From Eledone cirrhosa (lineage: Eukaryota): a stretch of DNA of 64,000 nucleotides. Shown here piece after piece: positions 2,011-62,703 of this stretch. The notes under the pieces are model-generated. The model worked only from the letters and a program-made list of their open reading frames with translations, searched no databases and was not told the DNA's origin. The stretch's first letter is position 1. Each line of letters opens with the position of its first letter. The stretch is from the NCBI GenBank assembly GCA_964016885.1, contig OZ024755.1:39432001-39496000 (forward strand), written 5' to 3'. The position numbers were made by a program, and so were the translations under genes.

Positions 2011-2032
2011 TTATTATTATTATTATTATTAT

Positions 2033-4186: not shown

Positions 4187-4188
<2 letters not shown>
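2033..4188 (-). pseudogene. R4/Dong-type RLE retrotransposon family B, 5'-truncated, frameshifted copy 1
   Basis: ORF pieces: [65 protein letters not shown] (CCHC), RHD, RPDI..D (restriction-like endonuclease). (TAA)n on both sides. Confidence 0.88.
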
Positions 4189-4249
<61 letters not shown>

Positions 4250-4250
<1 letters not shown>

Positions 4251-5447: not shown

Positions 5448-8400
5448 TCCTTGAATCTCAGTCATTGATGTTGGTTAACTGGAAAGTCCGTTGGAATGAA
5501 TATCAAGCCACTACCTGCAGCCTCAGATATTCAGGACGTATCGGAGGGTTCTTGCTGTTCCAAGCAAGCATGCCTTTTGAAGCGTTCCAAAAAGCGTGAA
5601 GGGGCCGATTTTCTTTAACCATACCTGGAAACTTTTGGAGATAGTCCCCAGTGCGCCTATGACAATCGGGATCACTTTGACTTCATGGCAGTTCCAAATC
5701 CTTTTCACCTCCCACTTTAGGTCCTGGTATTGGTTAATTTTCTCCCTCTCCTTCTCTTGCACTCTCGTGTCGAACGGGCAGGCCACATCCACAATCAGGC
5801 ACGATCTTTTTTCTTTGTCCATAACCACCAGGTCAGGTCTATTGTGTTCCAGTTTTTTGTCCGTCTGTATCCTAAAATCCCACAGCACCTTCACCTGACT
5901 GTTCTCCATCACCGCCTCTGGCCTATGCTCATACCATTTCTCAGAATGTGGTAGATTGTTTACTTTGCACAGGTGCCAGTGGATCACCCTGCCCATCACA
6001 TCGTGTCTCCAGCCCTTATAGTGGGTCTGGGCTAGGTGTTTACACTCGGACACAATGTGAGCCACAGTCTCCTCTCTCTCTCCACAGATCCTGCACAGTG
6101 GGCTAGCCTCCTCCTTGTAAATATGGTGCTTCAACCACTTCGTTTTGAGGGCCTGCTCCTGCGCAGCCATTAGCATTCCTTCTGTAGCATTTTTGAGGTC
6201 TCCTCTTCTCAACCAGTTCCATGTCTGTGGATCTCTAAATTCAGTTTTCTCAAAGAAGGTACTATGAAGGGATTTTCCCTTAAGGCTGCTCTTCCTCCTT
6301 GATGTTATTTCCTCCTTGGACATCCCCTGGCCTACTGTCCCCTCCTTCAGTACAGTTCTGAAAATTGGCTCCTTACTATAGGTCACGTATTTGTATAGGT
6401 TGTTTTTCTCCATCTGAACACAGTCCTCTATGCTGATAAGACCTCTTCCACCCTCAGATCTCCTTAGGTAGAGTCTATCGACATCACTCCTCTTGTGGAA
6501 CATGTTGTAGATAGTCAATAGCTTCCTAGTCTTCCTATCCATTTCTTTTTGTTCAGCAACATTCCATCTCAGAATTCCCGCACTGTACCTAATAATAGAC
6601 ACAGCTCGGGAATTTACTGCGTTCATGGCATTTCTGCTGTTCAGATGTGACTTCAATACGCTCCTTACTCTCCGAATGTATTCAGTTCTTAACAATTCCT
6701 TCATTTTTTTGTTCTTTATGCCATCAGCCTCCAGAACGCCCAAATACTTGTATCCTTCCTCAGAGTCAATTTCCTTTATCATCTCACCTGTTGGTATCTA
6801 GATCCCGTTACTTCTGCTCAACCTACCCCTCCTCATCACAATGACTCCACATTTACTAATACCAAACTGCATACATATATCACTGCTGAAAATACGGACA
6901 GTGTCAACAAGCACATCCAACTCCTTCTCACTTTTCCCGAAGAGCTTAAGATCGTCCATGAAGAGGAGGTGATTGATGGTAAGCTCTCCCTTTCCCAACT
7001 TGTATCCTGCTCTCACTTTTCGCAGCATAATGGTCAAGGGCATCAGGGCAAGGACAAACAACAGAGGGGACAGGCTATCTCCCTGGAAGATACCTCTCTT
7101 GATCTTCACGCTTCCCAAGGATACTCCAGTTGATGTCAACTCTGTCTCCCAGGACCCCATACTCCTGCCCAGCAACTGTCTGATGTTATCTGCCACCCTG
7201 AAGACCTCCAGGCTTTTGGTGATCCAGGAATGAGGCACCATGTCAAATGCCTTTCTGTAGTCTATCCATCCCATGGCAAGATCAGTGTGTCTCCTCCTGC
7301 AATTCCCCATTACCATCTTATCAATAAGCAACTGGTCCTTTGTACCACGTGACTTCTTTCGGCATCCTTTCTGTTCGTCCGGTAACAAGTTGTTTGTGTG
7401 GAGGTGATGGTAGATTTCCTCAGACACAATGCTCGTCAACAGTTTCCACATTACGGGCAGACATGTGATAGGTCTATAGTTGGTAACATCATTACCCTTG
7501 ATTCGGTCTTTCATTATCAGAACTGTGGTACCTTTTGTCAACCACTCTGGCACCTCACCCGACACCAAGCAGTCATTGAACATGGCCGTCAGCTTCGGGT
7601 GGAGGGATGTTAAATGTTTAATCCAATACCCCTGCACACCATCTGGGCCTGGTGATTTCCAGTTGGTTAGTTTTTTGGCTTGCCCCTTAAGAGTTTCAAC
7701 TGTGATACTCAAATCAGTCTGTTGTTGTGCCTTCTCACCGATCTCCCTCTGTACTGTCTCAATCCACCCTGCCTGGGCATTGTGTCTAACATCCTGCTCC
7801 CATATTCCTCTCCAGAATGTTTTAGCTTGTTCCGCCCCAGGGATCAAGTCGTTGCCTCTTTCTTTCCCCTCAAGCTGTCCAAACAACATCTTCTGGTTGT
7901 TGTCGAACATGCGGTTCTGTTTATACTGACTGACCCTGTTCTCGTATCGCCTGATTTTGGCACTCTTTGCTACAATGCGTTGCTTCAATTCCTCTATGAT
8001 AATATTTAGCTTTTTACTCCTAGTTTTGTATTTTATTTCCAGTCTATTTTTAGTGCCTATGTTTTTTAGTGTCCCATTCAGTAGTGACTCAAGCTTTCCT
8101 ATGTCATTTCTCATTTCCCCGATTTGCCCACTCAGTCGCTTCTTCCACCACGGCTCTGCTCTTTCTTGTCTGTTGTTTCCTCTCGCTTTTATACCAAGTA
8201 GTTTCCTCACCGTATTTGCTGTTGCTTTGAGGATATTGTTGCACTGGTGAAGACTCCTCGCCTCAAGGTATGGGATGACTTTGTTTACCTTAGCTGTTGT
8301 TTCTTTTAACTTTTTCCTGTCTACAAATCTTAGGTTCATAGGTCTCCCACTATCATTGTTCAATTCATCTACCACTAGATTTAGGATGTCAACCGAATCT

Positions 8401-8672
8401 TGTCCTAGCCCGTCAGCATTCATCTCCTCAGTGGCCGTATCTCTGTTCCAGGTATTATTTATCTCAGTATTCAGATCATTGTCTGCTTCGGGTGGTTCCT
8501 CCGTTCTCAGGACCTCCTCACCTTCATTTCCCACCGGCTCGCTTGTCTGGCATACTACACCCGCCATCTCCAAGCCATTCTCTCTGCTCAGTTCCTCCAG
8601 TTCCAGCTCGCTTATCCACCCATTAGTTCTTATTACCCGAGCCTGCCCGGCCAATTTTTGTTCATCTAATTT
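5448..8672 (-). mobile_element. R4/Dong-type RLE retrotransposon family A, near-complete ORF with one in-frame stop
   Basis: ORFs 6798..8654 and 5523..6782 are in the same frame. Motifs: KSPGPDG, NYRPITCL, IDYRKAFD, QGDSLSP, LFMDD, YKYLG, CRICGEREETVAHIVSEC, RHD, RPDLVV. (TAA)n at both ends. Confidence 0.9.
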
Positions 8673-8678
8673 AAATAA

Positions 8679-8711
<33 letters not shown>

Positions 8712-8993
8712 TATATACCTATTTATTTATTTTTCAGTTCCAATCTGTGGTTCAGTGTTGGAGGTTTCACTGATAATTCACTCAGTTATAGAGAAGAATA
8801 TGGATATTACCTTACAGACTCACCAGCCTTACACGACTCTCTTCCCTACTGGTATAACACACATTTAATCATCTTTTATACCTACATACATACATATATG
8901 CACACATACATACATACATAATACACACATACTTACATACATACACGATGAAGTTTCGTTTACATGTATTTATTGTTTTAATGTGTTTCGATC

Positions 8994-11192: not shown

Positions 11193-11513
<321 letters not shown>

Positions 11514-11514
11514 T

Positions 11515-14224
11515 GTGTTCAGTGCAAAAACCAATCTATCGGTGAGGGAAATAATGCCTATCTCCCCGCGAGTGTTGAGGGTGACCTTCAATGGAAACCC
11601 AAGACTGACAGTCATCTCAGCCTATAGTCCAACCGAGGGGGACAGTGATGTGAATGCGGAGGAGTTCCATGAGGAGGTGTGTAGAGCTGTCAACACCACT
11701 CAGGCACACAATATCCTGCTTGTTTTGGGGGACTTCAATGCACATCTGAGTAAGGAGGGCAGTGAAGATCCTTGCTGGTACTTCCATAACAATACCAACC
11801 GAAATGGAAGACTACTGAGAGACACCCTGCTGGAGGCGAAGTTGATGGCGACCAACCTAAGGTTTAGGAAGAATCTGGGGAAGATGTGGACCTACATCTC
11901 AGATATGCACCTGTCCAAGTCCCAGATTGATTTCATTCTGGTGAGGAAAAAGTGGCGGAATAGTGTTCAGAACACGGAACCATACAGCTATTTCAGTACA
12001 CTGGGTAGTGACCACCGGCTCGTTATGAGTGAGGTCCGCGTGAGCTTAAGAATGAGCAAGGCTCAGCCCCGGAGAGCAATCTATGACTGGGGAGCTTTCA
12101 AGGAAGATGATAAGCTACAAGAGAGGTTCACAGTGGAAGTGAGAAACAGGTTTAGTGCTCTGTGTGGAGAGTCAGAGGAGAGAGAGATTGGATGGACTGA
12201 GGAGAGTATGACGAGGAGGTACGGGCACTTCACCAATGCAGTGGCGAAAGCAAGTGAAACCCTGGTGCCGAGGAAAAAGAACAAAGGGAAGCACGTCAGC
12301 TCTGCAAACCCAAAAGTGTGTGCAGCCAGAGAACACCTGAAAGCTGCCAGGGACCAATTCTATGCTGATCCTACGGAGGAGAGGATGGAGACTGTGGAGG
12401 TGATGAGGGAAGAGCTCTGTACCGCTTACACTGAGGTCAGAGAGGAGGCACTGATAGAGAAGATCAGAAGTGTGGAGAGAGCGGTTGACAGATCTGGATA
12501 TAAGGAGAGCTGGATGATCATCAACGAGATCACAGGGAGGAAGAAAAGGTGTTCGAGTCAGATCCAGGGAACGGGGCCCGAGGATAGGAAGAGGAAATGG
12601 CTAGACCATTTTAGGACCCTACTAGGAGAGCCACCCTCCACAGCCCAGAGCACTGGGGAGATCAGGCGGCTGTTTGAGGAACTGGATGTTGAGACAGAGC
12701 CCTTCACCAGAGAGGAGCTTCAGAGAGCCAAGAAGAAGATCAAGGAGGGCAAGGCTCATGGAGAAGATGGAGTGGCATCAGAGGTGATGAAGAGGTGTGA
12801 TTTTGATGATATCATCCTGGGGTTCTGTAACGGGGCACTGGAGAAAGGAGTTGCCCCGAATCAGTGGAGGATCAGTAACATCGTCCCAGTGCCAAAGAAG
12901 GGAGATCTCTCTAACACCAACAACTACTGGGGGATCTCACTGACGTCACTTGTGGCAAAGACGCTCAACAGGATGATTCTTAACAGGATCCAGCCTGAGA
13001 TGGAGAAGAAGCTCAGGGACAACCAGAACGGCTTCAGAGAGGGTAGATCAACCACCAGTCACATCCTGATGCTGAGGAGGATATTAGAGGGAGCTAGAGC
13101 AAAGTGCCTTCCTGCGGTCATGGTTTTCATTGACTTTAGGAAAGCCTTTGATTCTGTGGACCGTTACTGCCTGATGAAGATCTTACAGGCTTATGGAATC
13201 CCCAAGAGGATAGTGGACCTGATATCACTGCTCTACACCAACACCAAAGCCCAAGTCATTACACCTGATGGGATGACAGAGTTCTTTGAGATACTGGCTG
13301 GAGTGCTCCAGGGAGATACATTGGCTCCCTACCTTTTTATCATCGTAGTGGACTATTGTATGCGCCTGGCACTGGAGAAACACCAAGACTCTGGCTTTAC
13401 TGTAGCACCGGCTCAGAGCAGGAGAGTTGGGGCGAAAAAGGTATCGGATGCTGAATTTGCCGACGACATAGTTTTGGTGACAAATACAGTGAAGGAGGCA
13501 GAGGATTTGATGCGTGAGGTTGAGACTGTGTCGATGAGTGTGGGGCTGAGAATGAATGAGACTAAAACAAAATATCTGGTAGAGAATGTTGAGAAGCCAG
13601 AGGGGATTACTAATGTAGGCGGGAAGCCGCTGGAATTGGTTGAGGACTTCCTGTATTTGGAAGCAAAGATTGGGAATGCGGAGGATGATGTGGTTGAGAG
13701 GAAGAGCAAGGCCTGGGCGGCGTGCCACAGCTTGAGATCGGTGTGGAAGTTGGACCTTCGTAGAGACCTGAAAATCCGCCTCTTCATTGCTGTAGTGGAG
13801 TCTTTGCTGCTGTATGGGTCTGAGACTTGGACACTGACCAAGAAACCCACTCAGATGGTGGATGGGTGCTACACGAGAATGCTGAGGATGGCTCTGAACA
13901 TTAATCAGTATACACTGAGGATGAAAAACTCAGAGCTGTATGGGAGCATTCTAAAAGTCAGCTCAAAAGTGAGACAGAGGAGACTAAGGTTGGCTGGACA
14001 TGCTCACCGACATCCGGAGTTGACATTGCACTCAGTGCTCCTTTGGGAGCCCCTACATGGACACACTAGAAGAGGAAGACCAAGGTTAACATATGTTGAT
14101 GCCCTAAGGACAGACACTGGTCTGTTGGAGATGCAGGATATGGCAGCGATAATGAGGGACAGAGACCGCTGGAGAGAACTCGTCCATGGATCTCGGGAAT
14201 TTTACCCGCCTTAGATAGATAGAT
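11515..14224 (+). mobile_element. RTE/RTE-X-like LINE, 5'-truncated, open 899-aa APE-RT ORF, (TAGA)n tail
   Basis: APE motifs (SAYSPT, LGDFNA, SQIDFIL, SDHRLV) and RT motifs (QNGFREGRST, FIDFRKAFDSV, GVLQGDTLAPYLF, EFADD, LLYGSETW, RRLRLAGH, RGRP). Stop codon merges into TAGATAGATAGA. Confidence 0.9.
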
Positions 14225-14444: not shown

Positions 14445-14637
14445 GATAAATCTACCAAGAGTTTACGGTAGTGTCCAATCCGTATGAAGAACTCAATGTA
14501 TTCCGGATATCATGGAAAGAAGAGATGTAATGAAAAATCACATTCGGTGAAAGATAAACGGTATACAGAGTCAAGATAAAATATTAAACAAATAATGAAT
14601 AAACAATGAAACAGTTCCTTATATTAAACAAAAAAAG

Positions 14638-14791
14638 TTCATTATTTAACGATCGTTTCTAGGGTATATATGTGTTAGAATTGGCATGCATATTCAACAG
14701 ATCTATGTACAAAATTATACAAAATTATACAAACTATCAAGATTAAATATACATACCAACACATATATACGCCGTCTTCAGAAATAATGAA
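14638..14791 (-). ncRNA. Type I hammerhead ribozyme with long stem II (left arm of giant palindrome)
   Basis: Reverse complement of 21231-21384. Confidence 0.75.
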
Positions 14792-15442
14792 ATATATTTA
14801 TTGATAATAACAACAATTCAAAATTTCAGGTCCCTTTGGGAACAAAATTGACCAATGAAAATACAAAAGGTTTAATGCAGTTCAGTGTGTGTATATACAT
14901 GTAACTACCCTTACACATATTTTACAAAAATGTATGCACAACTTGTATACGCATATCAAAAGGATGGATGCAAGTACACAATTTCAAGGTTAATGTCTCT
15001 GTAAGTTTATAAAGCACAGATAAGATGCGTATAGACACATAAATATGAAATAAGTGTATACACATATTCACATACTCAGACATATCCGTACAATCACACA
15101 CACACTCGCGTATATGCATAAACATACACATAACTAACGAACATACAAACACACACACACCCCCACTCACATATATATATGTGGATATAAAATCCTAAGC
15201 ACATGGATATTAATTCACTCACATAAACACTGGCAAACACATTTAGATCAAGATACAGAAATTAGGTGGGAGGGGGGGGGGGGAGGTCAGTATTCAACGG
15301 TTTGGGCAGACTGCTTAATATAGATGTATCTATAAACTAAGAAAATAAAAAATAATAAAATATAATAAAATAATAAATAATAAATAAACAATAAAAGGAA
15401 AGAAAAGAAAAAGAAAAAAGAAAAAAGAAATATATCAAGAAA

Positions 15443-15500
<58 letters not shown>

Positions 15501-15653
15501 ATACACATATATACACACATACATATATATATATACACATATACAAACACATACATACATATACACACATCCACACTTAGAACATACATACACACACATA
15601 TATAAACATATACATATACACACATACATACATATACACACATACATATAAAT

Positions 15654-15748
<95 letters not shown>

Positions 15749-16029
15749 CATACACATATAATCACACATACTATATAGACACACATATATATACACACAT
15801 ACACGCACATATACATACACTTACATACTTATATACATACAGATATACACATACATACCTATATATACACACACAAATACATACAGACATACATACATAC
15901 ATACAGACAAATACTTACGCATCTATATATCGGTATATACATACAAACACCACTACACTCTCACACAACTCAGACATACAAAGAAAAAGGTATATACCTA
16001 TACACAACTACATATACAAATAGAGAAAC

Positions 16030-16098
<69 letters not shown>

Positions 16099-16288
16099 GA
16101 CATACACACACATACACATACATACACATACATACATGTACACACACATAGATATATATACACATACACACATACACACATACATATATAGTCATACACA
16201 CACATACACATACACGAACATACACATACACATATATAAAGATATATACACACACACACACACACACATACACACACATATATATAAA

Positions 16289-16345
<57 letters not shown>

Positions 16346-16678
16346 TACATATATATACATACACACATACATAGACATATATGTACATACATACACATAC
16401 ACAGATACATACACACACATACATACATATATATATACACACATAGACATATACATACAAACACACACAACATACCTACACACATATATATTCATACATA
16501 GAATTAGATATATATTCATACATACACCTGCACTTACATATACTCATATATATAAATACATACGCATTCATATATGCGTATATACATAGAAACACCACTA
16601 CACCCTCACCCAACTCAGATATACAAAGAAAAAGGCATATACATATATATATATACACGCATTAATAGAGATATATAT

Positions 16679-16710
<32 letters not shown>

Positions 16711-16932
16711 ACACATACACTTATATATATATACCCACATACACATACAACCATAAATACACATACAAACACCCACATATACATATATATACACATATAT
16801 ATATATACACACACACATAAAAAACAGACATGCACATATATATTTTTTTACACACATATATACACATATATATACATATACACACCCTCACATATACACA
16901 CATACACATAAGTTATATAATAATAATAAATA

Positions 16933-16984
<52 letters not shown>

Positions 16985-17236
16985 GAATATAGACACATAT
17001 ACACACATAGATATATATATACACATATATATACACATACATATACACACACACATATACACACTCACATATATATGTGTGTGCAAACACATATATATAC
17101 ACATACACACATATACACATAAACACATATATGTGTATACATGCACACACACACATATATCCACATAGATACGAAGATAGACATATAAATAGAGACATAC
17201 ATATATATACACACACATACATATACATACATACAT

Positions 17237-17292
<56 letters not shown>

Positions 17293-18734
17293 GCATACAC
17301 ATACACATATATATACACATGCATATATACACATATACACATACATACACACATATATATACACACACAATCTTACATTCTTATTTGCATGCGCATATAT
17401 GTATTTTTATATTCAGATATAAATACCCAAACATATATACACCTACCTACATATATATTCATACATACACACTTACAAACACAGATGATAATAGTATGGG
17501 GGAAAGGGGGGGGGGGTGGAGAAGGGGATTATAGTAAATATATGTTTCAAGAAACATAGAATATTATCCGTATCTGGATCCAATGTATGTTTTTACATAG
17601 TTTCAGTGTTAGGAAATACAATAAACAAGAAATAAGGCAAAATTTATGCATTTCAAAATAAATAAGTATACCATTAATTATATGTTAACTAAACTAAAGA
17701 TAGTTAACATATTGATTTCTAAGGTGTAAATTAGTTAGGTTTATAATATTTGAAGCAGAATTTTGAAGTTAAAAAGTAGTAGAGTATTGATTATAGTATA
17801 ACTAAATTAAAGTTAATAACGTTATGGTATCAATATTAGGAAATGAATTTAGTAATAGGGAAAAAACAAATAAAGTATTACATCGGTAGTAGAATATAAA
17901 TTATAGGTTAACTAAATTAAAAATTATATATTTATTTCTATAGTATATGTTAATTAGGTATATAATAAATAAAACAGATATTGTATTTTATCAATAGCGG
18001 AATATAATTATATGCAAATAGAAATCAAAATTAATACTAATTAATGCAAATAGAAATCAAAATTAATACTAATTAACATATACTATAGAAATAAATATAT
18101 AATTTTTAATTTAGTTAACCTATAATTTATATTCTACTACCGATGTAATACTTTATTTGTTTTTTCCCTATTACTAAATTCATTTCCTAATATTGATACC
18201 ATAACGTTATTAACTTTAATTTAGTTATACTATAATCAATACTCTACTACTTTTTAACTTCAAAATTCTGCTTCAAATATTATAAACCTAACTAATTTAC
18301 ACCTTAGAAATCAATATGTTAACTATCTTTAGTTTAGTTAACATATAATTAATGGTATACTTATTTATTTTGAAATGCATAAATTTTGCCTTATTTCTTG
18401 TTTATTGTATTTCCTAACACTGAAACTATGTAAAAACATACATTGGATCCAGATACGGATAATATTCTATGTTTCTTGAAACATATATTTACTATAATCC
18501 CCTTCTCCAACCCCCCCGCCCTTTCCCCCATACTATTATCATCTGTGTTTGTAAGTGTGTATGTATGAATATATATGTAGGTAGGTGTATATATGTTTGG
18601 GTATTTATATCTGAATATAAAAATACATATATGCGCATGCAAATAAGAATGTAAGATTGTGTGTGTATATATATGTGTGTATGTATGTGTATATGTGTAT
18701 ATATGCATGTGTATATATATGTGTATGTGTATGC

Positions 18735-18808
<74 letters not shown>

Positions 18809-19063
18809 ATGTATGTATGTATATGTATGTGTGTGTATATATATGTATGTCTCTCTATTTATATGTCTATCTTCGTATCTATGTGGATATATGTGTGTGT
18901 GTGCATGTATACACATATATGTGTTTATGTGTATATGTGTGTATGTGTATATATATGTGTTTGCACACACATATATATGTGAGTGTGTATATGTGTGTGT
19001 GTATATGTATGTGTATATATATGTGTATATATATATCTATGTGTGTATATGTGTCTATATTCG

Positions 19064-19112
<49 letters not shown>

Positions 19113-19689
19113 TATTTATTATTATAATATAACTTATGTGTATGTGTGTATATGTGAGGGTGTGTATATGTATATATATGTGTATATATGTGTGTAAAAA
19201 AATATATATGTGCATGTCTGTTTTTTATGTGTGTGTGTATATATATATATGTGTATATATATGTATATGTGGGTGTTTGTATGTGTATTTATGGTTGTAT
19301 GTGTATGTGGGTATATATATATAAGTGTATGTGTGTGTATATATATATATATATGTGTATATATATCTCTATTAATGCGTGTATATATATATGTATATGC
19401 CTTTTTCTTTGTATATCTGAGTTGGGTGAGGGTGTAGTGGTGTTTCTATGTATATACGCATATATGAATGCGTATGTATTTATATATATGAGTATATGTA
19501 AGTGCGAGTGTATGTATGAATATATATCTAATTCTATGTATGAATATATATGTGTGTAGGTATGTTGTGTGTGTTTGTATGTATATGTCTATGTGTGTAT
19601 ATATATATGTATGTATGTGTGTGTATGTATCTGTGTATGTGTATGTATGTACATATATGTCTATGTATGTGTGTATGTATATATATGTA

Positions 19690-19766
<77 letters not shown>

Positions 19767-19962
19767 TTTATATATATGTGTGTGTGTGTATGTGTGTGTG
19801 TGTGTGTGTGTATATATATCTTTATATATGTGTATGTGTATGTTCGTGTATGTGTATGTGTGTGTATGACTATATATGTATGTGTGTATGTGTGTATGTG
19901 TATATATATCTATGTGTGTGTACATGTATGTATGTGTATGTATGTGTATGTGTGTGTATGTC

Positions 19963-20041
<79 letters not shown>

Positions 20042-20322
20042 GTTTCTCTATTTGTATATGTAGTTGTATATAGGTATATACCTTTTTCTTTGTATGTCTG
20101 AGTTGTGTGAGAGTGTAGTGGTGTTTGTATGTATATACCGATATATAGATGCGTAAGTATTTGTCTGTATGTATGTATGTATGTCTGTATGTATTTGTGT
20201 GTGTATATATAGGTATGTATGTGTATATCTGTATGTATATAAGTATGTAAGTGTATGTATATGTGCGTGTATGTGTGTATATATATGTGTGTCTATATAG
20301 TATGTGTGATTATATGTGTATG

Positions 20323-20371
<49 letters not shown>

Positions 20372-20524
20372 ATTTATATGTATGTGTGTATATGTATGTA
20401 TGTGTGTATATGTATATGTTAATATATGTGTGTGTATGTATGTTCTAAGTGTGGATGTGTGTATATGTATGTATGTGTTTGTATATGTGTATATATATAT
20501 ATGTATGTGTGTATATATGTGTAT

Positions 20525-20582
<58 letters not shown>

Positions 20583-21230
20583 TTTCTTGATATATTTCTT
20601 TTTTCTTTTTTCTTTTTCTTTTCTTTCCTTTTATTGTTTATTTATTATTTATTATTTTATTATATTTTATTATTTTTTATTTTCTTAGTTTATAGATACA
20701 TCTATATTAAGCAGTCTGCCCAAACCGTTGAATACTGACCTCTCCCCCCCTCCCACCTAATTTCTGTATCTTGATCTAAATGTGTTTGCGAGTGTTTATG
20801 TGAGTGAATTAATATCCATGTGCTTAGGATTTTATATCCACATATATATATGTGAGTGGGGGTGTGTGTGTGTTTGTATGTTCGTTAGTTATGTGTATGT
20901 TTATGCATATACGCGAGTGTGTGTGTGATTGTACGGATATGTCTGAGTATGTGAATATGTGTATACACTTATTTCATATTTATGTGTCTATACGCATCTT
21001 ATCTGTGCTTTATAAACTTACAGAGACATTAACCTTGAAATTTTGTACTTGCATCCATCCTTTTGATATGCGTATACAAGTTGTGCATACATTTTTGTAA
21101 AATATGTGTAAGGGTAGTTACATGTATATACACACACTGAACTGCATTAAACCTTTTGTATTTTCATTGGTCAATTTTGTTCCCAAAGGGACCTGAAATT
21201 TTGAATTGTTGTTATTATCAATAAATATAT

Positions 21231-21384
21231 TTCATTATTTCTGAAGACGGCGTATATATGTGTTGGTATGTATATTTAATCTTGATAGTTTGTATAATTT
21301 TGTATAATTTTGTACATAGATCTGTTGAATATGCATGCCAATTCTAACACATATATACCCTAGAAACGATCGTTAAATAATGAA
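21231..21384 (+). ncRNA. Type I hammerhead ribozyme with long stem II
   Basis: TTCATTATTT-CTGAAGA-[GTATATATGTGTT...AACACATATATAC]-GAAA-CGATCG-TT/AAATAATGAA. 10-bp stem I and palindromic stem III. Confidence 0.78.
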
Positions 21385-21437
21385 CTTTTTTTGTTTAATA
21401 TAAGGAACTGTTTCATTGTTTATTCATTATTTGTTTA

Positions 21438-21469
<32 letters not shown>

Positions 21470-24480: not shown

Positions 24481-24739
24481 TATATATATATATAAGTATG
24501 TATACGTACATACCTATATGCATACAGACGTACAGTATTATGTATATATATACATACATGCACACATATATGAGAAATGAAATTTCGTTTCATTTTTTCC
24601 ATTTATATACATATATATATACTATACTTATATATCTCAATTCTACTTTGGAAAAGCATAATATAATATTTCACGAATCCAATTTTCTTTTTGTGAAGTT
24701 TAGTTTGTGAGCCTGTGGGTGTCTTGTTATGTCAAGTAC

Positions 24740-25560
24740 TATGTGTTGAGTTCTAAACTATTAATTCCTTGCGGGTTGGATTGTGGCGGTGGATTGGCAG
24801 TATCGGTAGAGAGTCGGACGCCATGCTTTCCAGCATAGTTACGTCCCTTTACCGTCTGAGTTCAAATCCCGCCGAGGTTTACTTTGCCTTTCATCCTTAC
24901 GGGGTCGATAAAATTAAGTACCAGTAATGCACTGGGTAATTGCTGGCCTTGTGCCTAAGGTAGAAACAATTATTTCCTTGCGGGTTGAGTCTACATATGA
25001 GCAAGGCTTCCTTAATTCTTAAATTGCCCACATTTCTATCACTGGCTTTAATAGTAACGGTAATGTTTCTACACTTGTCAACGTGTTTTTGGAAGAATGA
25101 GGATGCGCGTGTATTGAGGTGATCTTTATTGAGAGTGTGGAGTGCTCGAGTTGTACTACCAATGTAGAACTCCTTACATTTGTTGCATTCAATACGGTAT
25201 ACCACATGCGTCCACTAGCATATAACTGTGTCGCGGATAGGGAAGTTAGTCAGTGAGCATTGATTGAAGTTGTTTCTGAATTGCTTTTTAGACAGGTATA
25301 TGAAGAGCGGGAGTGTGCTAATCGTTTGTCCACACCTTCTTTGCGGATCGTTCTGTTGGTAGCTGTGGTTGTGTTTTCGCTGAAATGTGGGAATTTCATG
25401 AAGCAGATGTTAGAGGTTGTCTAATGTCTGCGGCATCCTTGATTCTTAAGTCGATGCACTGTGGATGTTGGGTATCCGTTCGTCTCCAGTATATCTATGA
25501 AGTGTGCTGTGTGAATTCAGCTGGTCCTCTATCTTGCTGCATTTATTCCAGATATGTGTA
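24740..25560 (-). pseudogene. Penelope-like element remnant: RT C-terminus plus GIY-YIG endonuclease, interrupted by a SINE
   Basis: VVYRIECNKCKEFYIGSTTR..DHL..KH...LRIKEALLI..LNP in ORF 24897..25205. Upstream LETNGYP thumb-like motif. Confidence 0.75.
24779..24973 (+). mobile_element. tRNA-derived SINE, full length, 14-bp TSD
   Basis: Same family as 1157. TTCCTTGCGGGTTG is duplicated at 24765-24778 and 24974-24987. Confidence 0.85.
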
Positions 25561-25619
25561 AGTTAATTTCTTATGTATCCGATTTTAGCCCCAAAGGGAA
25601 GGGCTGATCTATAATGCAC

Positions 25620-26635
25620 AAACAACATCGCAACTGGTCGGCCGTTAATATATGTCACACCAACATCACAGCCAAACACAACCACATAACAACATCACAA
25701 CCAAACGCAACCACATAACAACATCACAACTGGCCGGCCGTCAATATATGACACAGCAACATCACACCCAAACACAACCACATAACAACATCACAACTGG
25801 CCGGCCGTCAATATATGACACAGCAACATCACAACCACACACAACCACATAACAACATCACAACCAAACACAACCACATAACTGCATCACAACTGGCCGG
25901 CCGTCAATATATGACACAGCAACATCACAAACACACACAACCACATAACAACATCACAACCAAACACAACCACATAACTGCATCACAACTGGCCGGCCGT
26001 CAATAAATGACACAGCAACATCACACCCAAACACAACCACATAACAACATCACAACTGGCCGGCCGTCAATATATGACACAGCAACATCACAACCACACA
26101 CAACCACATAACAACATCACAACCAAACACAACCACATAACTGCATCACAACTGGCCGGCCGTCAATATATGACACAGCAACATCACAAACACATACAAC
26201 CACATAACAACATCACAACCAAACACAACCACATAACTGCATCACAACTGGCCGGCGGTCAATATATGACACAGCAACATCACAAACACACACAACCACA
26301 TAACAACATCACAACCAAACACAACCACATAACTGCATCACAACTGGCCGGCCGTCAATATATGACACAGCAACATCACACCCAAACACAACCACATAAC
26401 AACATCACAACTGGCCGGCCGTCAATATATGACACAGCAACATCACAACCACACACAACCACATAACAACATCACAACCAAACACAACCACATAACAACA
26501 TCACAACCAAACACAACCACATAACTGCATCACAACTGGCCGGCCGTCAATATATGACACACCAACATCACAACATCAAATACAAAATGCAACCACATAA
26601 CAGTACCACAACCGGGTGTCCGTCAATATATGTCA
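25620..26635 (+). repeat. Minisatellite of about 96-bp and 67-bp units built from ACAACCACATAACAACATC subunits
   Basis: Recurring CAACTGGCCGGCCGTCAATATATGACACAGCAACATC. The 96-bp unit gives the 32-aa repeat ORFs. Confidence 0.92.
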
Positions 26636-27200
26636 CAACAAAACACCAACAGACCAGCATCTCATCCTAAATCAAGCCACAGATCGAACTATAACGAAGA
26701 GCCAGCACATAGGAAGGCCTCCAAATGTAACTGCCATCTGCCAGATAAATGCCCACTACAAAATAGATGCCTGGAGTCCAGTATGTTATACCTGTGCACT
26801 ATTAAGTCTGGTGACCAGGCGTGGTATTATATAGGTTCCACAGTCAGTGACGTCAAACAACGATGGTATGTGCATCGGCACTCCATAAAGAACCGGAGAC
26901 TCAGTAACGCAACGATGCTGGCCAATGAAATCTGGCAGCTTGTGGATAGTAATCAAGGATATGAAATAAGGTGGTCGATATTATCGAATACCAGAACCTA
27001 CTTTATGGGATGCCCCAATGCGGATTATGCAATATGGAATTACTCTATATTCTGCAATATAAGACTCTACTAAATAGCAAAATCGAAAGATCAATTTTCT
27101 GTAGGCACAAAACTGCCGGCAAATACTGGAATTACAAACCAAGATAAACAGGATTCGATCCAGCAACCTCATTATCTATATAAACAAAACAATTCCCTGG
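26630..27200 (+). pseudogene. Penelope-like GIY-YIG endonuclease remnant with CxCx5CPx4C linker
   Basis: KCNCHLPDKCPLQNRCL, LYLCTI...YYIGST...KQRWYVH..SI....NATMLANEIWQL...IRWSIL. Frameshift in the C-terminal Cys region. Confidence 0.78.
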
Positions 27201-28687: not shown

Positions 28688-29460
28688 TGTAGAACACTGG
28701 AAGGTAATATCCGTAGTGGTAGAGCACTCAGTCCATGGGGACGATTTACCTAGGTAGAAGTGGTTACACAACAGTCAGTTCACCATACCGAGAACAATTG
28801 TTTCACCTTAGCGGATCCTCAGCTCGTAATGGACATGATTATACGGAATAGGAAGGCCACCGTACGAACGCGCATACGCAGAAACGGTCACTTCCCTCTG
28901 GCAATTCTAAATTGTGTGCGAGAGGTGTAAGCGAGATAACTGCGAAAGTCCGACCCCATTTCACGCGCACGCGCGCTCTGCCGAATACCTCAGATATTCA
29001 AAACAACAAACAGCGAAGGACGCGTTCCGGACTTGTCCGACAGACAACCTTTTCCCCCAACCCGGAAAAAACCCCAGTTGATGGATGTGAATCCGAAATA
29101 TATAGGAACTATTAAATCTCTCCCAAGGTAACTCTCTCTTGTGTTGTTATTTTTATTTTATCCTTTATACTCTTCCCTTCATTCTACACATCTCACACAT
29201 CTTATACACACCACGCATCTCAACGTACACCCACTTACATCTCTCTCTCCACCACCGGACCTTGTTACCCGGAGATTTACCCATTTGCATTGTCGAGGCT
29301 TCCAAACGACTTAAAGATATTTACTTATTGTTCCACAATGCTTCAAGCAAACTTCAATACTCTCTTATATACTAAATATTTTGTTACAAAATTCAAAAAC
29401 ATTTTTATCTATAAAGCAAGTTTAAATACATATTAAATATGTATAGGGATATTTACTACA
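28688..29460. mobile_element. Dispersed repeat, possibly a solo LTR (partial second copy at 36391-36652)
   Basis: About 260 bp shared with 36391-36652. Begins TGTAG and a CTACA occurs at 29460, but no TSD seen. Confidence 0.35.
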
Positions 29461-30934: not shown

Positions 30935-31195
30935 ATAAGTATGTATGTATGTATACGTACATACATATATGTATACAGACGTACAGTAGTATGTATATAT
31001 ATACATACATGCACACATATATATATGCACGTATCGGTGCATATATATATGTGTGCATGTATGTATATATATATATACATACTGCTGTACGCCTGTATAC
31101 ATATAAGTATGTACGTATACATACATAAATACTTACATTTAAGTAAGTGCCGTTATAAGAGAAATGAAAGTTCGTTCCATTCTATTCCATTTATA
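30935..31195. repeat. Hairpin derivative of the 31791-32510 family
   Basis: Arms around the centre GCACGTATCGGTGC (about 31028-31041). The right arm ends CATTCTATTCCATTTAT then (TA)n. Confidence 0.7.
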
Positions 31196-31657
31196 TATAT
31201 ATAGACATATATATATATATACATATATATACATGTATATATAATAATAAGTAGAATATTATTTATACTTATATATACACTATATATAATTATAAACGGG
31301 AAAGGTCAGTAATTCATTACTACCTTATTACCAGTAAGAAAAATAGCTCAATGTAAATACATCAGATGTTTTACAGAGCCGGAATATAAATTACAGACAT
31401 TAAATGACACTGTTAATGACAACACTAACATCTATGTATCTTTACGATTGTTCTGTGGAATAGGGGGTTAATTATATGTCTAAAATTTGCGAGTGATCCG
31501 ATGATACCAAACTTTTCGTTTGGTATCATTGGAGCACTAGCATTATAATAAATGTTCGGTGAATCCATACGTACATATATATATGTGTGCATGTATGTAT
31601 ATATATATATACATACTACTGTACATCTGTATACATATATGCATGTACGTATACATA

Positions 31658-31694
<37 letters not shown>

Positions 31695-31790: not shown

Positions 31791-32510
31791 CTTAAATGTA
31801 AGTATGTATGTATGTATACGTACATACATATATGTATACAGACCTACAGTAGTATGTATATATATATACACACATGCAAACATTTATATATATGCACGTA
31901 TCGGTTTACCGAACATTTATTATAATGCTCGGTTTGTTTGTTTGTAAACAAACAAACAGCCCGAATTACGGCGTACAGTGTTTAGGCAACCACGTCAGCT
32001 TTTTGTTCAACACTGACACAGGAACGATGTACTAGTTTCAAGTTTATTAGCTATCGTCAGCATCGTATACCTTCCAGCCAGATGGTTGAAAGTCTGAAAG
32101 TATATACTTTCCTAATGCATATTAACGGCTGGCAGCCTAATTTGCATATCGAGTGAGTTCAGTCGGCCGGGCACACTGAAAACGATAAATGGAATAGAAT
32201 GAAACGAAATTTCATTTCTCACTCTTAGTAGGCACTTACTTAAATGTAAGTATTTATGTATGTATACGTACATACATATATGTATACAGACGGGCTGTTT
32301 GTTTGTTTACAAACAAACAAACCGAGCATTATAATAAATGTTCGGTAAACCGATACGTGCATATATATATATATGTGTGCATGTGTGTATATATATACAT
32401 ACTACTGTACTCTGTATACATATATGTATGTACGTATACATACATACTTACATTTAAGTAAGTCCCGTACTAAGAGTGAGAAAGGAAATTTCGTTTCATT
32501 CTATTCTATA
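31791..32510. mobile_element. Hammerhead element: minus-strand monomer plus partial tandem (period 448 nt) and an inverted plus-strand arm
   Basis: CTTAAATGTAAGTAT..ATGTATACGTACATAC is repeated at 31791 and 32239. 32291-32510 is an inverted partial copy. Confidence 0.8.
32024..32066 (-). ncRNA. Minimal type I hammerhead ribozyme
   Basis: ACGATG-CTGACGA-TAG(CTAATAAA)CTT-GAAA-CTAG-TA/CATCGT. 6-bp stem I, palindromic stem III ACTAGT, weak stem II. Confidence 0.75.
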
Positions 32511-32515
32511 TATAT

Positions 32516-32926
32516 ATCAATAATATTAATAAATGGAAACTACCTTTATAAAACCATATTTATTTTATTATATATATTTCAAGGGTACCAAAATGTTGGC
32601 ACGCTTTCATCATATAAAATACAAAAGTTGTTTTACAGATAGTGCCATATTTGAATAGTCAAACAGAACGTAAAAAGATAAGTTCTGTTCTTGTTTTTGA
32701 ATATGTCACTATCTGTAAAACATCTTTTGTATTTTATCTTATGAGAATGTGCCAACATTTTGGTACCCTTGAATATATATATAATAAAATAAATATGGTT
32801 TTATAAAGATAGTTTCCATTTATTAATATTATTGATCTTATACTCCAGAAGAATACTGTAGAGTGGTTCGAATCTGTTATAAATGAATTTGTTGAATAAC
32901 CAACAAATTAAATAACTATTTGCTTA
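32516..32926. mobile_element. Inverted-repeat island with degenerate hammerheads (family of 56657 and 62339)
   Basis: 32516-32677 mirrors about 32679-32836. Arms: ATTTTAT-(ATGATGA or CTTATGA)-..GTGCCAA/TTGGTAC..-GAAA-TATATA-TA/ATAAAAT. Tail CTTATACTCC. Confidence 0.78.
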
Positions 32927-35806: not shown

Positions 35807-36693
35807 TCTAATGATTCTGTCATTTACCGATCTTACATATTGCTCTTATATTAAAATACCATAACAGTTGGTAATTAAATCTAAATCAATTATTCCACGG
35901 TTAACTCCATGGAAAGCACCCGGATTATTATATCGCATCAAAAGTAAAGAAAGTGCCCTCTTCCAATATACTTCCTCCTGATTAGAAAAATATATTCAGA
36001 GTGGGTCTATTCCGTCTCGAGACACTTTAGTATTTAAAACAAAATTAGTTGTATTCAAAATAGAACCCAAATAACTATAAAACATGAGCGAATGCCGTCA
36101 TGTATTTTATTGTTTTCTATTTACGTCTTATCAATTTTATGATGCTCGGGTCTCTGTTATAAACTAAAATGAAGCTCATTACGATCTATTTATCCATAGG
36201 AGTAAGCTGATAACTTTACATCCCAATAGTTACGGTAAAATCATTATGGCTAGTTTTCATGGATTTTACAATGCGTCTGCTACTGATGAGTTTATTAACT
36301 TAAGGTACACGATAAGAAATTATATTTAGAACATTCTCAAAATATACATATCAACGTTATATATGTATCTATGTACATACATATATATATAGTGGTAGAA
36401 CACTGGAAGGTAATATCCGTAGTGGTAGAGCACTCAGTCCATGGGATGAGTTAGGTAGAAGTGGTTACACAACAGTTAGTTCACCATACCGAGAACAATT
36501 GTTTCACCTTAGCGGATCCTCAGCTCGTAATGGACATGGTTATACGGAACAGGAAGGACAACCGTACGAACGCCATGCACAGAAACGGTCACTTCACTCA
36601 GGCAATACTAAATTGCGTGCGAGAGCTGTAAGGGAGATAACTGCAAAAGTACGAAAGTTTCTAGCTGATAAAAAAATTAGGTTGTTCTTGTAA

Positions 36694-37890
36694 TTCAATC
36701 CGGAGCTTTGTAGTTATGTAAGAGGTGTTTCCAGACGTGTGGACAACGTGTGAAGAATTCATTTCTTGTGTTTAGGCAATCGCTATTGCGAAATCTCTTT
36801 AGAATATTTATTCGTTCATCAATACATAGTCCACACGACGGATTGCCCCTTGCGTATGGCTTGGACTTAGTGATGGCTTTCCATTGAATGGAGTAGTCTA
36901 TACTTGAGTCATTGAGGGACCATACGTGGCTCGCGAATTTCGTGGATGAACATCTGTCCGAGTACCTAAAGGTCGACTGGTGGTTCAGGAAACGTTCCTT
37001 AAATCGGCCCTTCGCCATACCCACATATGATTTGACCTCCTCTGGTTGATTTGGTCGGTTGGAAGTGACCACAGCTTCATAAACTACAACGGGTGTGTTT
37101 CATTGCTGTTGAAGGAGACAAGCTTCGGGCTTACGGCAAGAGCACCCTGGTGGTGTGTTGCTCTTAGGGCTGTTGGTGATGTGGACCTTCATGTTCTTAA
37201 TGTAGGAGTATCCTAGTTTTACTTTATGTCGGTTAAAGATGGAGCGGTATTTATGACCTATAGGAAAGTCTCTATCTAAGAGGGCTAGAAATGTTTTACC
37301 TACATTGGTTTTAACGTTGAGTGAGAAGGGAGGAGTGAACCAGATAGTTTCTCTATTATTACGTTTGTTTTCTTATTGCTGTTGTTGTTAATGGGAGAGT
37401 AAGTGATAGGTTGCGCGAAGCCGCTTTTAGCTAACGCCGTGTTATAGGAGGGTGCCGCTCTATCAAAGATAGCCTTATTAGAGGAGAGGTTTGAGATTCT
37501 AGTAGTGATATACTTTACGAATTTCTAAAAACAGTGGGAGGGTGGCATCAGTCCTTGTGAATGTAATTGAGTTTTTCGTTAAGCTTACGGAAGGGTCTGT
37601 AGGTATGTGTACGAAGGTCTAAATTAATGTCTAAGAAATCTACGCTAGAGAGGTTGGTAGCTGCTGTTATCCTAAGTCCTAACTCATTGAAGTAGAAGCT
37701 AAGTCCCTTTTAAACCGGTCGAGGTCGTGACCACTTTTATGGCCCGATAAGGTCAGTCCATCGTCGCGTTATATTCCCGTGTGGAAGTCCGGGAATCTAA
37801 CACGTAATATGTCTAAGATAAATAGGCCAACCAAGTCGCATACGTCAGCACTGTCAAACGATCCCATGGAGACGTGGAACGGGTCTGAAG
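36694..37890 (-). pseudogene. Penelope-like element remnant with RT and C-terminal GIY-YIG endonuclease
   Basis: Minus strand: SMGSFDSADVCDLVGLFIL, RDDGL, VDFLDINLDL, PFRKLN, WFTPPFS.NVKTNVG..FL.L, then CSC....C.L and ORF 36695..37072 (YVGMAKGRFKERFLNH...IQWK...CGLC..E...LNTRNEFFTRCPH). Several stops and frameshifts. Confidence 0.85.
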
Positions 37891-38151
37891 TTGTTTGTGT
37901 CTGGCTAGTTCGTCCTCAGATTTGATGTGATTTTTGTTGTGTTAACACTGGTCTGAGGATCAGGCAGTCTTGGAGTCTGGTCTGGCGTACCAACCCAGAT
38001 CACGAGCCAGTTGTTTGAGAAATATTGGTAACCAGGATGTTACATTTCCTATGTAACATCTCCACTTTGTCCTTATTATATCAACTCTGCTCTGTAGCGA
38101 ATGCTGACTTTGATACTCTCACAAGTTTTTTTCAGACTTACTAAACATTCT

Positions 38152-40813: not shown

Positions 40814-41084
40814 GGTATATACTTACATACAAACATACACACATATATATATAATGCGTGTGTGTGTGTGTTTGTTTGTGTATGTATGTATATATAAAAC
40901 ATAAAAACGCTGAGCGATCGATATATTTACATATGTTTTCAACAATTCATTTGTCAGATATGATTGTATTTCAATAACATTTCCATTAAACTCTGTTGTA
41001 AAAGTAACAACTGTAAGACAGACATATGCCAAATATGTGTAATAATTCCAGAGATATTCTTTGACGGTTCTTCAAGTATCTTCA

Positions 41085-42725
41085 CAGACAGCGACACCCT
41101 CTCTGCCTCTAGTACTGATATTTCCCTCACCTACCCACATACAGCGACACCCTCTCTGCCTCTAGTACTGATATTTCCCTCACCTACCCACAGACAACGA
41201 CACCCTCTCTGCCTCTAGTATTGATGTTTCCCTCACCTACCCACATACAGCGACACCACCACAGCCTCTAGTATTGTCATCTCGCTCACCTACCCACAGA
41301 CAGCGACACCACCTCTGCCTCTAGTACTGATATTTCCCTCACCTACCCACAGACAGCGACACCACCACAGCCTCTAGTATTGTCATCTCGCTCACCTACC
41401 CACAGACAGCGACACCACCTCTGCCTCTAGTACTGATATTTCCCTCACCTACCCACAGACAGCGACACCACCACAGCCTCTAGTATTGTCATATCGCTCA
41501 CCTACCCACAGACAGCGACACCACCTCAGCCTCCGTATTGTCATCTCGCTCACCTACCCACAGACAACGACACCACCTCAGCCTCCGTATTGTCATCTCG
41601 CTCACCTACCCACATACAGCGACACCACCTCAGCCTCTAGTATTGTCATCTCGCTCACCTACCCACATACAGCGACACCACCTCAGCCTCCGTATTATCA
41701 TCTCGCTCACCTACCCACAGACAGCGACAACACCTCAGCCTCTAGTATTGTCATCTCGCTCACCTACCCACAGACAGCGACACCACCTCAGCCTCTAGTA
41801 TTGTCATCTCGCTCACCTACCCACATACAGCGACACCACCTCAGCCTCCGTATTGTCATCTCGCTCACCTACCCACAGACAGCGACACCACCTCAGCCTC
41901 TAGTATTGTCATCTCGCTCACCTACCCACATACAGCCAAACCACCTCAGCCTCTAGTATTGTCATCTCGCTCACCTACCCACATACAGCGACACCACCTC
42001 AGCCTCTAGTATTGTCATCTCGCTCACCTACCCACATACAGCGACACCACCTCAGCCTCCGTATTGTCATCTCGCTCACCTACCCACAGACAACGACACC
42101 ACCTCAGCCTCCGTATTGTCATCTCGCTCACCTACCCACATACACCGACACCACCTCAGCCTCTAGTATTGTCATCTCGCTCACCTACCCACATACAGCG
42201 ACACCACCTCAGCCTCTAGTATTGTCATCTCGCTCACCTACCCACAGACAACGACACCACCTCAGCCTCCGTATTGTCATCTCGCTCACCTACCCACAGA
42301 CAGCGACAACACCTCAGCCTCTAGTATTGTCATCTCGCTCACCTACCCACAGACAGCGACAACACCTCAGCCTCTAGTATTGTCATCTCGCTCACCTACC
42401 CACAGACAGCGACACCACCTCAGCCTCCGTATTGTCATCTCGCTCACCTACCCACAGACAGCGACAACACCTCAGCCTCTAGTATTGTCATCTCGCTCAC
42501 CTACCCACATACAGCGACACCACCTCAGCCTCTAGTATTGTCATCTCGCTCACCTACCCACATACAGCGACACCACCTCTGCCTCTAGTATTGTCATCTC
42601 GCTCACCTACCCACATACAGCGACACCACCTCACCCTCTAGTATTGTCATCTCGCTCAACTACCCACATACAGCGGCACCGCCTCAGTTCCAGCCTCCGT
42701 ATTGTCATCTCGCTCACATACCCAG
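41085..42725 (+). repeat. 52-53-bp minisatellite, about 30 copies
   Basis: AGCGACACCACCTCAGCCTC(TA/C)GTATTGTCATCTCGCTCACCTACCCACA(T/G)AC in contiguous units with no spacers. Confidence 0.95.
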
Positions 42726-55327: not shown

Positions 55328-55391
55328 GTTTTGTGGGTTCACTTTCGTTAAACTGTTGTTTTAATCTACGGCGCTCATTTCCTTCATATCA

Positions 55392-55800
55392 AATAATTGT
55401 TTCTACTTTTGGTACAAGGCCAGCAAATACCCAGTGCATTACTGGTACTTTATTGTATCGACCCCGTAAGGATGAAAGGCAAAGTTAACCTCGGCGGGAT
55501 TTGAACTCACACCGTAAAGGGACGTAACTATGCTGGAAAGCATGGCGTCCGACTCTCTACTGATACTGCCAATCCACAAATAATTGTTTCTACTTTAGGC
55601 ACAGGGCCAGCAATTACCCAGTGCATTACTGGTACTTTATTTTATCGACCCCGTAAGGATGAAAGGCAAAGTCAACCTCGGCGGGATTTGAACTCATATC
55701 ATAATGGGACGTAACTATGCTGGAAAGCATGGCGTCCGACCCTCTACCGATACTGCCAATCCACCGCCTTCCACTGCCAATCCACTGCCAATCCACAAAT
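55392..55800 (-). mobile_element. Head-to-tail SINE dimer
   Basis: Two consecutive reverse-complement copies (55392-55577 and 55578-55768), plus duplicated 5' heads CTGCCAATCCA. Confidence 0.85.
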
Positions 55801-56593: not shown

Positions 56594-56656
<63 letters not shown>

Positions 56657-56657
<1 letters not shown>

Positions 56658-56893
56658 GATATTAACAAATGGAAACTATATTTATAAAACCATATTTATT
56701 TCATTATACATATTTCAAGGACACCAAGTTAAATTATGGTGTCCTTGAAATATGTATAATGAAATAAATATGGTTGATAAATACAGTTTCCATTTGTTAA
56801 TATCGTATTTTTACTCCAAATATTTGTTGAGTGCTTTATATCAGTTATAAAAATATTTGCTTGTTGTATCCCAACAATTTAAATAGAACTTTT

Positions 56894-56896
<3 letters not shown>
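56657..56896. mobile_element. Hairpin island of the 62339 family, inverted inside hammerhead stem II
   Basis: 56657-56726 mirrors 56737-56808. Only the GAAATATGTATA half of the hammerhead remains. Tail TTTTACTCC matches 62619. Confidence 0.8.

Positions 56897-56966
<70 letters not shown>

Positions 56967-62210: not shown

Positions 62211-62703
<493 letters not shown>

Follow-up and report, generated by a model that had tools for sequence, protein, structure and literature searches.

Structure of the insertion

The DNA at positions 31791–32507 of the window (the whole 64-kb stretch analyzed here) is a single insertion that meets (TA)n at both of its outer ends (Table 1). It comprises a long minus-strand arm, covering slightly more than one copy of a 448-nt unit, and a shorter plus-strand arm, and the two meet head to head at 32291 with a junction overlap of 1 nt. 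From 32291 to 32458 the plus arm mirrors 31963–31791 at 93% over 175 columns, the first 59 nt being identical; over their length the arms differ by several substitutions and indels. A ~48-nt extension is present at one outer end only.

Table 1. Features of the 448-nt family and of neighboring Penelope-like elements (PLEs) in the window
Feature	Position	Strand	Description
Long arm	31791..32291	-	501 nt, 1.12 units; 5'-truncated at 32291; proximal, tail-less 3' terminus flush with (TA)n
One 448-nt unit	31791..32238	-	36.6% GC; longest ATG-started frame 53 aa (either strand, circular reading)
TA/GTAT-rich 3' segment	31791..31905	-	~115 nt; predicted long hairpin
Two adjacent hairpins	31905..31964		Include AAAC/GTTT
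Type I hammerhead	32024..32066	-	6-bp helix I, CUGACGA core, GAAA, 2-bp palindromic helix III, GUA triplet
Copy-specific substitution	32043	-	Turns third helix II pair into a mismatch
Internal copy of ~48-nt tail	32191..32238	-	Holds stem-loop; rest of unit directly after
Partial tandem	32239..32291	-	53 nt from the 3' end of the unit before; matches 31791-31843 at 52/53
Inverted 5'-truncated copy	32291..32507	+	217 nt, without hammerhead; distal 3' terminus, adjoins (TA)n
Tail of plus arm	32459-32506	+	48 nt, then (TA)n at ~32507
Third head-to-head insertion	24492..24602		Inverted tail-less piece joined to tail-only piece
Second family insertion	30937..31191		Head-to-head arms; 48-nt tail on right arm only; (TA)n at both ends
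Family piece, 5'-truncated	31539..31661	+	Proximal terminus in (TA)n
Second CxCX5C PLE piece	26558-27070	+	Decayed, Hydra-type
Decayed autonomous PLE (context only)	36390..37950	-	RT, CxCX5C linker, GIY-YIG-type nuclease with CxxC/CxH

The unit is defined by the direct repeat between the partial tandem and the start of the long arm, at a period of 448 nt. Searching the window for other ungapped matches to this 53-mer, we found that the top six (43–52 of 53 positions) are all pieces of the same family, while the best match in an unrelated microsatellite reaches only 41/53, and we reject chance low-complexity similarity as the source of the repeat on this basis. The initial annotation had proposed a 448-nt monomer with a partial tandem and a switch at 32291 to a plus-strand partial copy ending next to (TA)n, all within one insertion, and had named independent low-complexity similarity as the finding that would overturn it; the repeat and the mirrored arm bear out the proposal as a single event. 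The AAAC/GTTT hairpin and TA-rich tract that it placed within the monomer are both there.

The length of the longest frame in the unit (Table 1) leads us to reject an ORF, and no ORF remnant was found in any of the six frames. The ORF of an autonomous PLE (PLE RT plus GIY-YIG) is likewise absent, the family path being contiguous without it. We rejected identity as a tRNA-derived or pol III SINE on finding no A box on either strand of the unit and no B box on its sense strand. The predicted fold of the unit is strong, with a z-score of about -5.4 read as linear RNA and -6.6 read as a circle, beating all 100 linear and all 40 circular shuffles. The locus is a decayed copy without sign of host function.

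The hammerhead motif

A single hammerhead lies within the 1.12 units, and no second ribozyme is present at the locus. Its predicted cut falls between 32030 and 32029 on the minus strand, and its helix II has a U·U at the base and a 6-nt loop. The locus copy retains the basal U·U and two pairs, followed by a mismatch (32050/32043). A strict type I descriptor finds nine motifs in the 64-kb window, against a mean of 0.04 (maximum 1) in 100 local dinucleotide shuffles. Rfam returned no hammerhead for the region alone at E <= 10 (two irrelevant matches) and none among the best 150 of 297 matches for the whole window at E <= 1; the whole-window matches listed are almost all microRNA models on TA-rich hairpins.

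The motif had been annotated as a minimal hammerhead. It lies where it was described, and its subtype is a different one. Minimal type I hammerheads are reported to have a helix II of 7–8 bp, a helix I of 4–5 bp, and an extra unpaired base (PMC4209133, Cervera and De la Pena 2014). They share with this motif the type I topology and a predicted need for a dimer; the motif differs in its 6-bp helix I, short helix II, and 2-bp helix III, which correspond to the canonical form of the same paper. Neither the 7–8 bp helix II, nor a short helix I, nor an extra base after A9 is found here, and the presence of helix III together with the short helix II and 6-bp helix I leads us to reject the "minimal" label in favor of a canonical metazoan type I hammerhead, with helices I, II, and III and the core in place and helix II intact in the family (see below). 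The canonical metazoan form is described as needing a second copy to cut well (PMC4209133), and the locus copy, with one ribozyme, is predicted to be incapable of releasing a monomer.

Other copies in the window and their 3' termini

The window holds four insertions of the family. Fragments noted initially near 24495–24605, 30935–31195, and 31540–31660 were all recovered, with the bounds in Table 1. Three of the four insertions are head-to-head with a tail on one arm (48 nt in two copies, partial in the third), and the remaining one consists of one piece that stops at the proximal site. The arm ends fall at two sites: four at the proximal site (three at the same TTA, with the 31791 copy ending 8 nt further on) and three at a distal site 48–56 nt downstream. 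All seven outer 3' ends abut TA runs, most overlapping them by a few TA bases.

Measured downstream from the ribozyme cut, the two 3' termini are at 239 and 287 nt. They are therefore internal on any ribozyme-made RNA, which fits the behavior of a PLE and not that of a LINE. The initial annotation had not mentioned these two termini ~48–56 nt apart, which delimit a PLE tail, nor the PLE footprint as a whole, nor the broken helix II.

The family in public sequencing runs

Parts of the stretch occur in 16 public runs from 12 studies, none of which contains half of its words. No RNA run is among those listed, which has no bearing on expression. Four runs were compared at 80% likeness: X1 and X17 (organism A), X5 (organism B), and X7 (organism D). 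Family matches comprise 7,515 contigs in X1, 43,689 reads in X17, and 53 contigs in X5; X7 gave no family contigs at this likeness, and organisms C–M have small word shares. The family is very high-copy, non-coding, and common to two labeled species. Pattern scans of metagenomes with the hammerhead motif and the tail motif gave no matches.

Contig pieces tile 31886–32230 without a break, and two of them cross from the tail's end into the remainder of the unit, covering no less than 31 nt to either side. This comparison masked the TA-rich ends, including 32241–32291, so that the continuity of tail into unit is seen in contigs while the head-to-tail junction lies in masked sequence. The best-supported loose ends in X1 are unit variants or TA flank, and one upstream of the tail (51 contigs) reads as the unit's own 3' end. 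Among the loose ends listed none continues into ORF-like sequence, and the share of X1 running into unlike sequence is 0. Summed X1 depth is 2.6e5–1.9e6 across 31889–32233, against 10–25x for minor contigs. From the rough ratio of the two we infer a copy number of 10^4–10^5, summed contig depth being no copy number in itself. The locus copy departs from nearly the whole of X1 depth at seven of 345 positions, a private divergence of ~2%.

The pairing letter at 32043 is carried by >99% of X1 depth, 94–98% of X17 reads, and all X5 depth, so the helix II mismatch of the locus copy is private decay. The initial annotation had held that a hammerhead not conserved in other copies would refute it. Family reads show no variant in the invariant core, in helix III, or at the U·U among the best 40 of 85 variant rows, where the positions that do vary are N7, one loop II base, and one helix I base; apart from N7, then, the core is free of listed variants. 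At the helix I base, 32063, roughly half of the X1 depth has a mismatch for which the variants listed offer no compensation, and this speaks against strict conservation of the structure.

The ribozyme cut site shows no fall in read depth and coincides with none of the strand-switch joints listed. At least eight listed joints link positions from 31953 to 32071 with 32229–32230, and one of these also occurs in an X1 contig. They suggest that a form consisting of an inverted piece plus tail only, like that at 24492–24602, is common, as expected if one RNA serves both start sites; they are a lead only, given that the locus copy diverges from the family there and that masking begins at 32241. X17 comes from a restriction library, with molecule ends that fall on the three AATT sites, so we do not interpret its depth profile biologically, and joints touching 31953, 32139, or 32208 were left out as likely ligation chimeras.

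Neighboring PLEs, fold-backs, and hammerheads

The decayed autonomous PLE at 36390–37950 is putatively assigned to the Hydra clade by its motifs (RT motifs, CxCX5C linker, CxxC, and CxH) and looks by eye like Hydra-1_Obim, a family of Octopus bimaculoides. The element carries a hammerhead of its own at 36523, again with U·U at the base of helix II. A decayed Hydra-type PLE at 28690–28950 (minus strand) shares its 3' end and hammerhead (36523 and 28822) with this element. Pfam recognizes neither of two Hydra-type nuclease pieces. A GIY-YIG fragment at 24900–25214 (minus strand) belongs to a different PLE type (PF01541, E 2.7e-4, just under the cut-off). Of the protein searches, one gave a set with GIY-YIG at 41% of cluster members, another gave 3,601 relatives, and the others gave LINE relatives or none.

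We examined fold-backs at 18 sites between 9448 and 62621. In 13 of them, including three of the 448-nt family, one arm is flush with (TA)n and the other carries a tail of 39–140 nt; two more have tails of ~20–25 nt by eye, and the other three lack this pattern. Hammerheads belonging to other families are found in several of the fold-backs. Beyond the 448-nt family, then, the window contains at least 10 fold-back-plus-tail insertions from several unrelated families.

A second hammerhead family occurs at 32516–32925, 56654–56900, and 62332–62705, with a tail of 82–89 nt; its motif is preserved at 62437, and at 32516–32836 it has decayed in both arms. The copy at 32516 shares a short (TA)n with the end of the 448-nt plus arm. 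Further type I hammerhead-like motifs lie at 27766 (minus) and 27884 (plus), 23159 (minus), 57431 (minus), and 48345 (plus), most of them inside fold-backs.

Other repeats and the microsatellite content of the window

A LINE at 11497–14211 (plus strand) has an open APE-RT frame of 905 aa, 77% to its best public relative. Other LINE sequence lies at 5523–8726 (minus strand) and, with repeats at 1266–5416, forms stacked copies separated by (ATT)n. A decayed stretch at 31400–31542 translates with a DDTKLF motif, which we take to be LINE RT-like, and a 55-nt local inversion there adjoins the family piece at 31539. A SINE-like repeat, presumably an octopus SINE, is found at 24800–24980 and 55390–55764, with two 187-nt tandem copies at 55390. 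Together with the microsatellite load and the likeness of the PLE at 36390–37950 to Hydra-1_Obim, this repeat points to an octopod as the probable host. Minisatellites are present at 25617–26641 (period ~67–259 nt), which runs into the PLE fragment at 26558, and at 41083–42724 (53 nt) and 58203–58680 (25 nt).

It had been proposed that part of the apparent microsatellite sea derives from the element. This holds in kind, for 5' truncation leaves mostly the TA/GTAT-rich ~115-nt 3' end of the unit, and is small in amount: tandem arrays with period <=6 occupy 12,085 nt of the window, and of the 1,210 nt in pieces of the family only 128 nt fall within them. We therefore reject the 448-nt family as a main microsatellite source. 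A 6.9-kb fold-back at 14576–21446, with 3.4-kb arms at 96% identity, is largely TA/CA-rich and has (TA)n near both sides. Either a large PLE-type insertion or misassembly could explain it, and it would account for far more microsatellite-like DNA than the 448-nt family.

A PLE footprint and a proposed origin

The footprint of PLEs is described as a partial tandem, an adjacent inverted 5'-truncated copy, and a tail of 30–40 bp at one end (PMC8557442, Craig et al. 2021), and such fold-back and tail structures are treated as known curation features (PMC8969392). In vitro, a PLE protein extends both strands of the target, with reverse transcription beginning at two positions inside the RNA that delimit the tail (PMC11167929, Frangieh et al. 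2024). The insertion described here has a pLTR-like partial tandem, an adjacent inverted 5'-truncated copy, a tail at one end, and a (TA)n target. Two observations count against this reading: the tail, at 48–56 nt, is longer than the usually cited 30–40 nt, and a target-site duplication is unreadable in (TA)n.

The element can be compared with two known systems. Like Hydra-clade PLEs, it targets (TA)n and combines a partial tandem with an inverted 5'-truncated copy and a tail at one end, and it has a canonical hammerhead near the 3' end with the U·U common in that clade. It differs from them in having no RT/GIY-YIG ORF and no detected homology, and in its 48–56-nt tail and TA-rich 3' segment (PMC8557442). 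With the Poseidon element PAc of Anolis it shares two internal RT starts bounding a tail, extension of both target strands, an AT-rich target, and a stem-loop where RT starts; PAc, an autonomous element, has its ends inside the ORF start, whereas the 448-nt element is non-coding (PMC11167929).

The features that point to dependence on the Hydra clade are the U·U-based canonical hammerhead, the (TA)n target, and the Hydra elements in the genome, and none of them is specific. Hydra elements have canonical hammerheads and use (TA)n as insertion sites, and by our own count from the published table 14 of 25 Hydra-clade families have U·U at the base of helix II (PMC8557442). The hammerhead of Hydra-1_Obim is different and lacks the U·U (PMC8557442), and the axolotl retrozyme motif HHR_Amex2 has the same U·U at the helix II base as the motif at 32024–32066 (PMC7229834), so that this pair is not diagnostic of Hydra. 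A (TA)n target is also seen in Naiad PLEs (PMC8557442), and this and the GIY-YIG piece of another PLE type at 24900–25214 count against the Hydra assignment. No homology of the 448-nt unit to any autonomous PLE was found within the 64-kb window, and six short motifs (four from the family and two from the hammerhead of the neighboring PLE) have no match in the accessible part of the PMC8557442 supplement.

Taken together, these data lead us to regard the locus, with a probability of roughly 0.8, as a decayed copy of an abundant non-coding 448-nt hammerhead element that was likely copied into (TA)n by a PLE RT-endonuclease, probably of the Hydra clade. A source locus would have been transcribed and, by analogy with animal retrozymes, its oligomeric RNA may have been cut by paired hammerheads and possibly ligated into a 448-nt circle. 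A PLE protein would have cut both strands of a TA tract, and reverse transcription would have started at two internal sites ~48–56 nt apart, as placed by the ends of the copies. The proximal-site cDNA would have reached 501 nt, crossing the ribozyme cut site and exceeding a full unit, which implies a circle or an uncut multimer as template, and the distal-site cDNA 217 nt. The two 5'-truncated cDNAs, seen joined head to head at 32291, would have been connected during repair. Decay of ~2%, including the loss of the helix II pair, would have come later.

Alternative explanations

The family may also be a full non-LTR retrozyme, whose dimers and multimers self-cleave, whose 448-nt circular RNA is abundant, and whose circle was copied at this locus. 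This is a stronger version of the explanation above, not its opposite, and we give it about an even chance. The canonical type I hammerhead, whose helix II the family preserves, a unit size and GC within range, the strong circular fold (z -6.6), a cDNA that crossed the cut site and a full unit, and the lack of any depth drop or listed joint at that site all speak for it. Against it stand the single hammerhead at the locus, the insertion of a lizard PLE in vitro without need for hammerhead cleavage (PMC11167929), and the behavior of predicted Xenopus retrozyme dimers, eight of nine of which did not cleave in vitro (bioRxiv 10.64898/2026.07.22.740005, Li, Clavereau and Pollet 2026). It is unlikely that the unit, instead of forming a self-spreading family, is only the pseudo-LTR of an abundant autonomous PLE or one of its rare by-products, "gutted" by internal deletion. 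Such a by-product would leave the same footprint as autonomous PLEs do, the hammerheads of Hydra elements lie ~100–210 nt from the 3' end (PMC8557442), and Logan contigs are short and break at branch points. Yet X1 depth does not collapse to single-copy level anywhere from 31889 to 32233, contigs of two species bridge every candidate deletion point (32017–32149, 32095–32215, 32096–32225, and 32143–32230), and neither the loose ends listed nor the six frames of the unit hold any trace of an ORF.

We consider it very improbable that the unit is a SINE-like element moved by a LINE (RTE or similar) and inverted by ordinary twin priming, even with LINEs abundant in the window, near-intact LINE ORFs at 11497–14211 and 6801–8726, and a 1-nt overlap at the inversion junction. 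LINE priming occurs at the RNA 3' end. The family instead has two fixed internal 3' termini, whose positions do not coincide with the ribozyme cut, and a one-sided tail, and it lacks a poly(A) or simple-repeat tail of its own as well as the promoter boxes sought above. Fold-backs in microsatellite-rich DNA are prone to misassembly, and 32241–32291 is masked in the independent reads; even so, an assembly artefact or a chance low-complexity similarity has a negligible probability, given arms that differ from each other, a tail asymmetry that recurs in unrelated families, a family-specific 53-mer, and family reads in two species.

Relation to retrozymes

Non-LTR retrozymes are described as tandem units of ~170–400 nt with type I hammerheads and circular RNA, for which PLEs are a strong candidate mobilizer (PMC7229834, Cervera and de la Pena 2020). 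Mobilization by PLEs has since been supported by co-occurrence and pLTR homology, in a study with no mollusc among the classes it names as sampled (bioRxiv 10.64898/2026.07.22.740005). In the accessible text of both papers, mobilization is argued without insertion footprints. The 448-nt family resembles animal non-LTR retrozymes in its short non-coding unit with GC below 45% (448 nt, 36.6%), its type I hammerhead with a weak helix III, its high copy number, and its co-occurrence with PLEs. It differs at this locus in having 1.12 units, one ribozyme, an inverted arm, a tail, and a (TA)n target. Because retrozymes are recognized by two hammerheads in tandem and the locus has one, we file it as a non-autonomous, PLE-dependent, retrozyme-like element; the class that fits best is a non-autonomous, retrozyme-like parasite of a (TA)n-targeting PLE. 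Known biology covers the feature, which is probably another family of a known sort and not a new mechanism.

Literature searches on octopus and cephalopod hammerheads brought up no description of the family and no cephalopod retrozyme, and Repbase, Dfam, or subscription journals may carry it under another name. A 2026 repeat annotation of O. vulgaris reports 31 recently active PLE families, and the words "hammerhead" and "ribozyme" are absent from its accessible text (PMC13282606). This is likely the first retrozyme-like case in a cephalopod.

The fullest picture that the data allow is a tentative one, and we think it rather less probable than not. An octopod retrozyme family of 10^4–10^5 copies might make a 448-nt circular RNA that is copied by a Hydra-clade PLE, with both PLE start sites on one template, which would be direct footprint evidence that animal retrozymes are moved by PLEs; its TA-rich 3' end might plant new (TA)n targets, so that the parasites would cluster and help to build the microsatellite sea. 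Apart from that picture, the family indicates that many of the fold-backs inside TA tracts of this genome are PLE insertions, which matters for repeat annotation and for assembly. Arguments about which enzyme mobilizes animal retrozymes still draw on co-occurrence and pLTR similarity, and an ORF-free, high-copy hammerhead family with a full PLE footprint makes the question of the mobilizer testable by alignment and in vitro assay.
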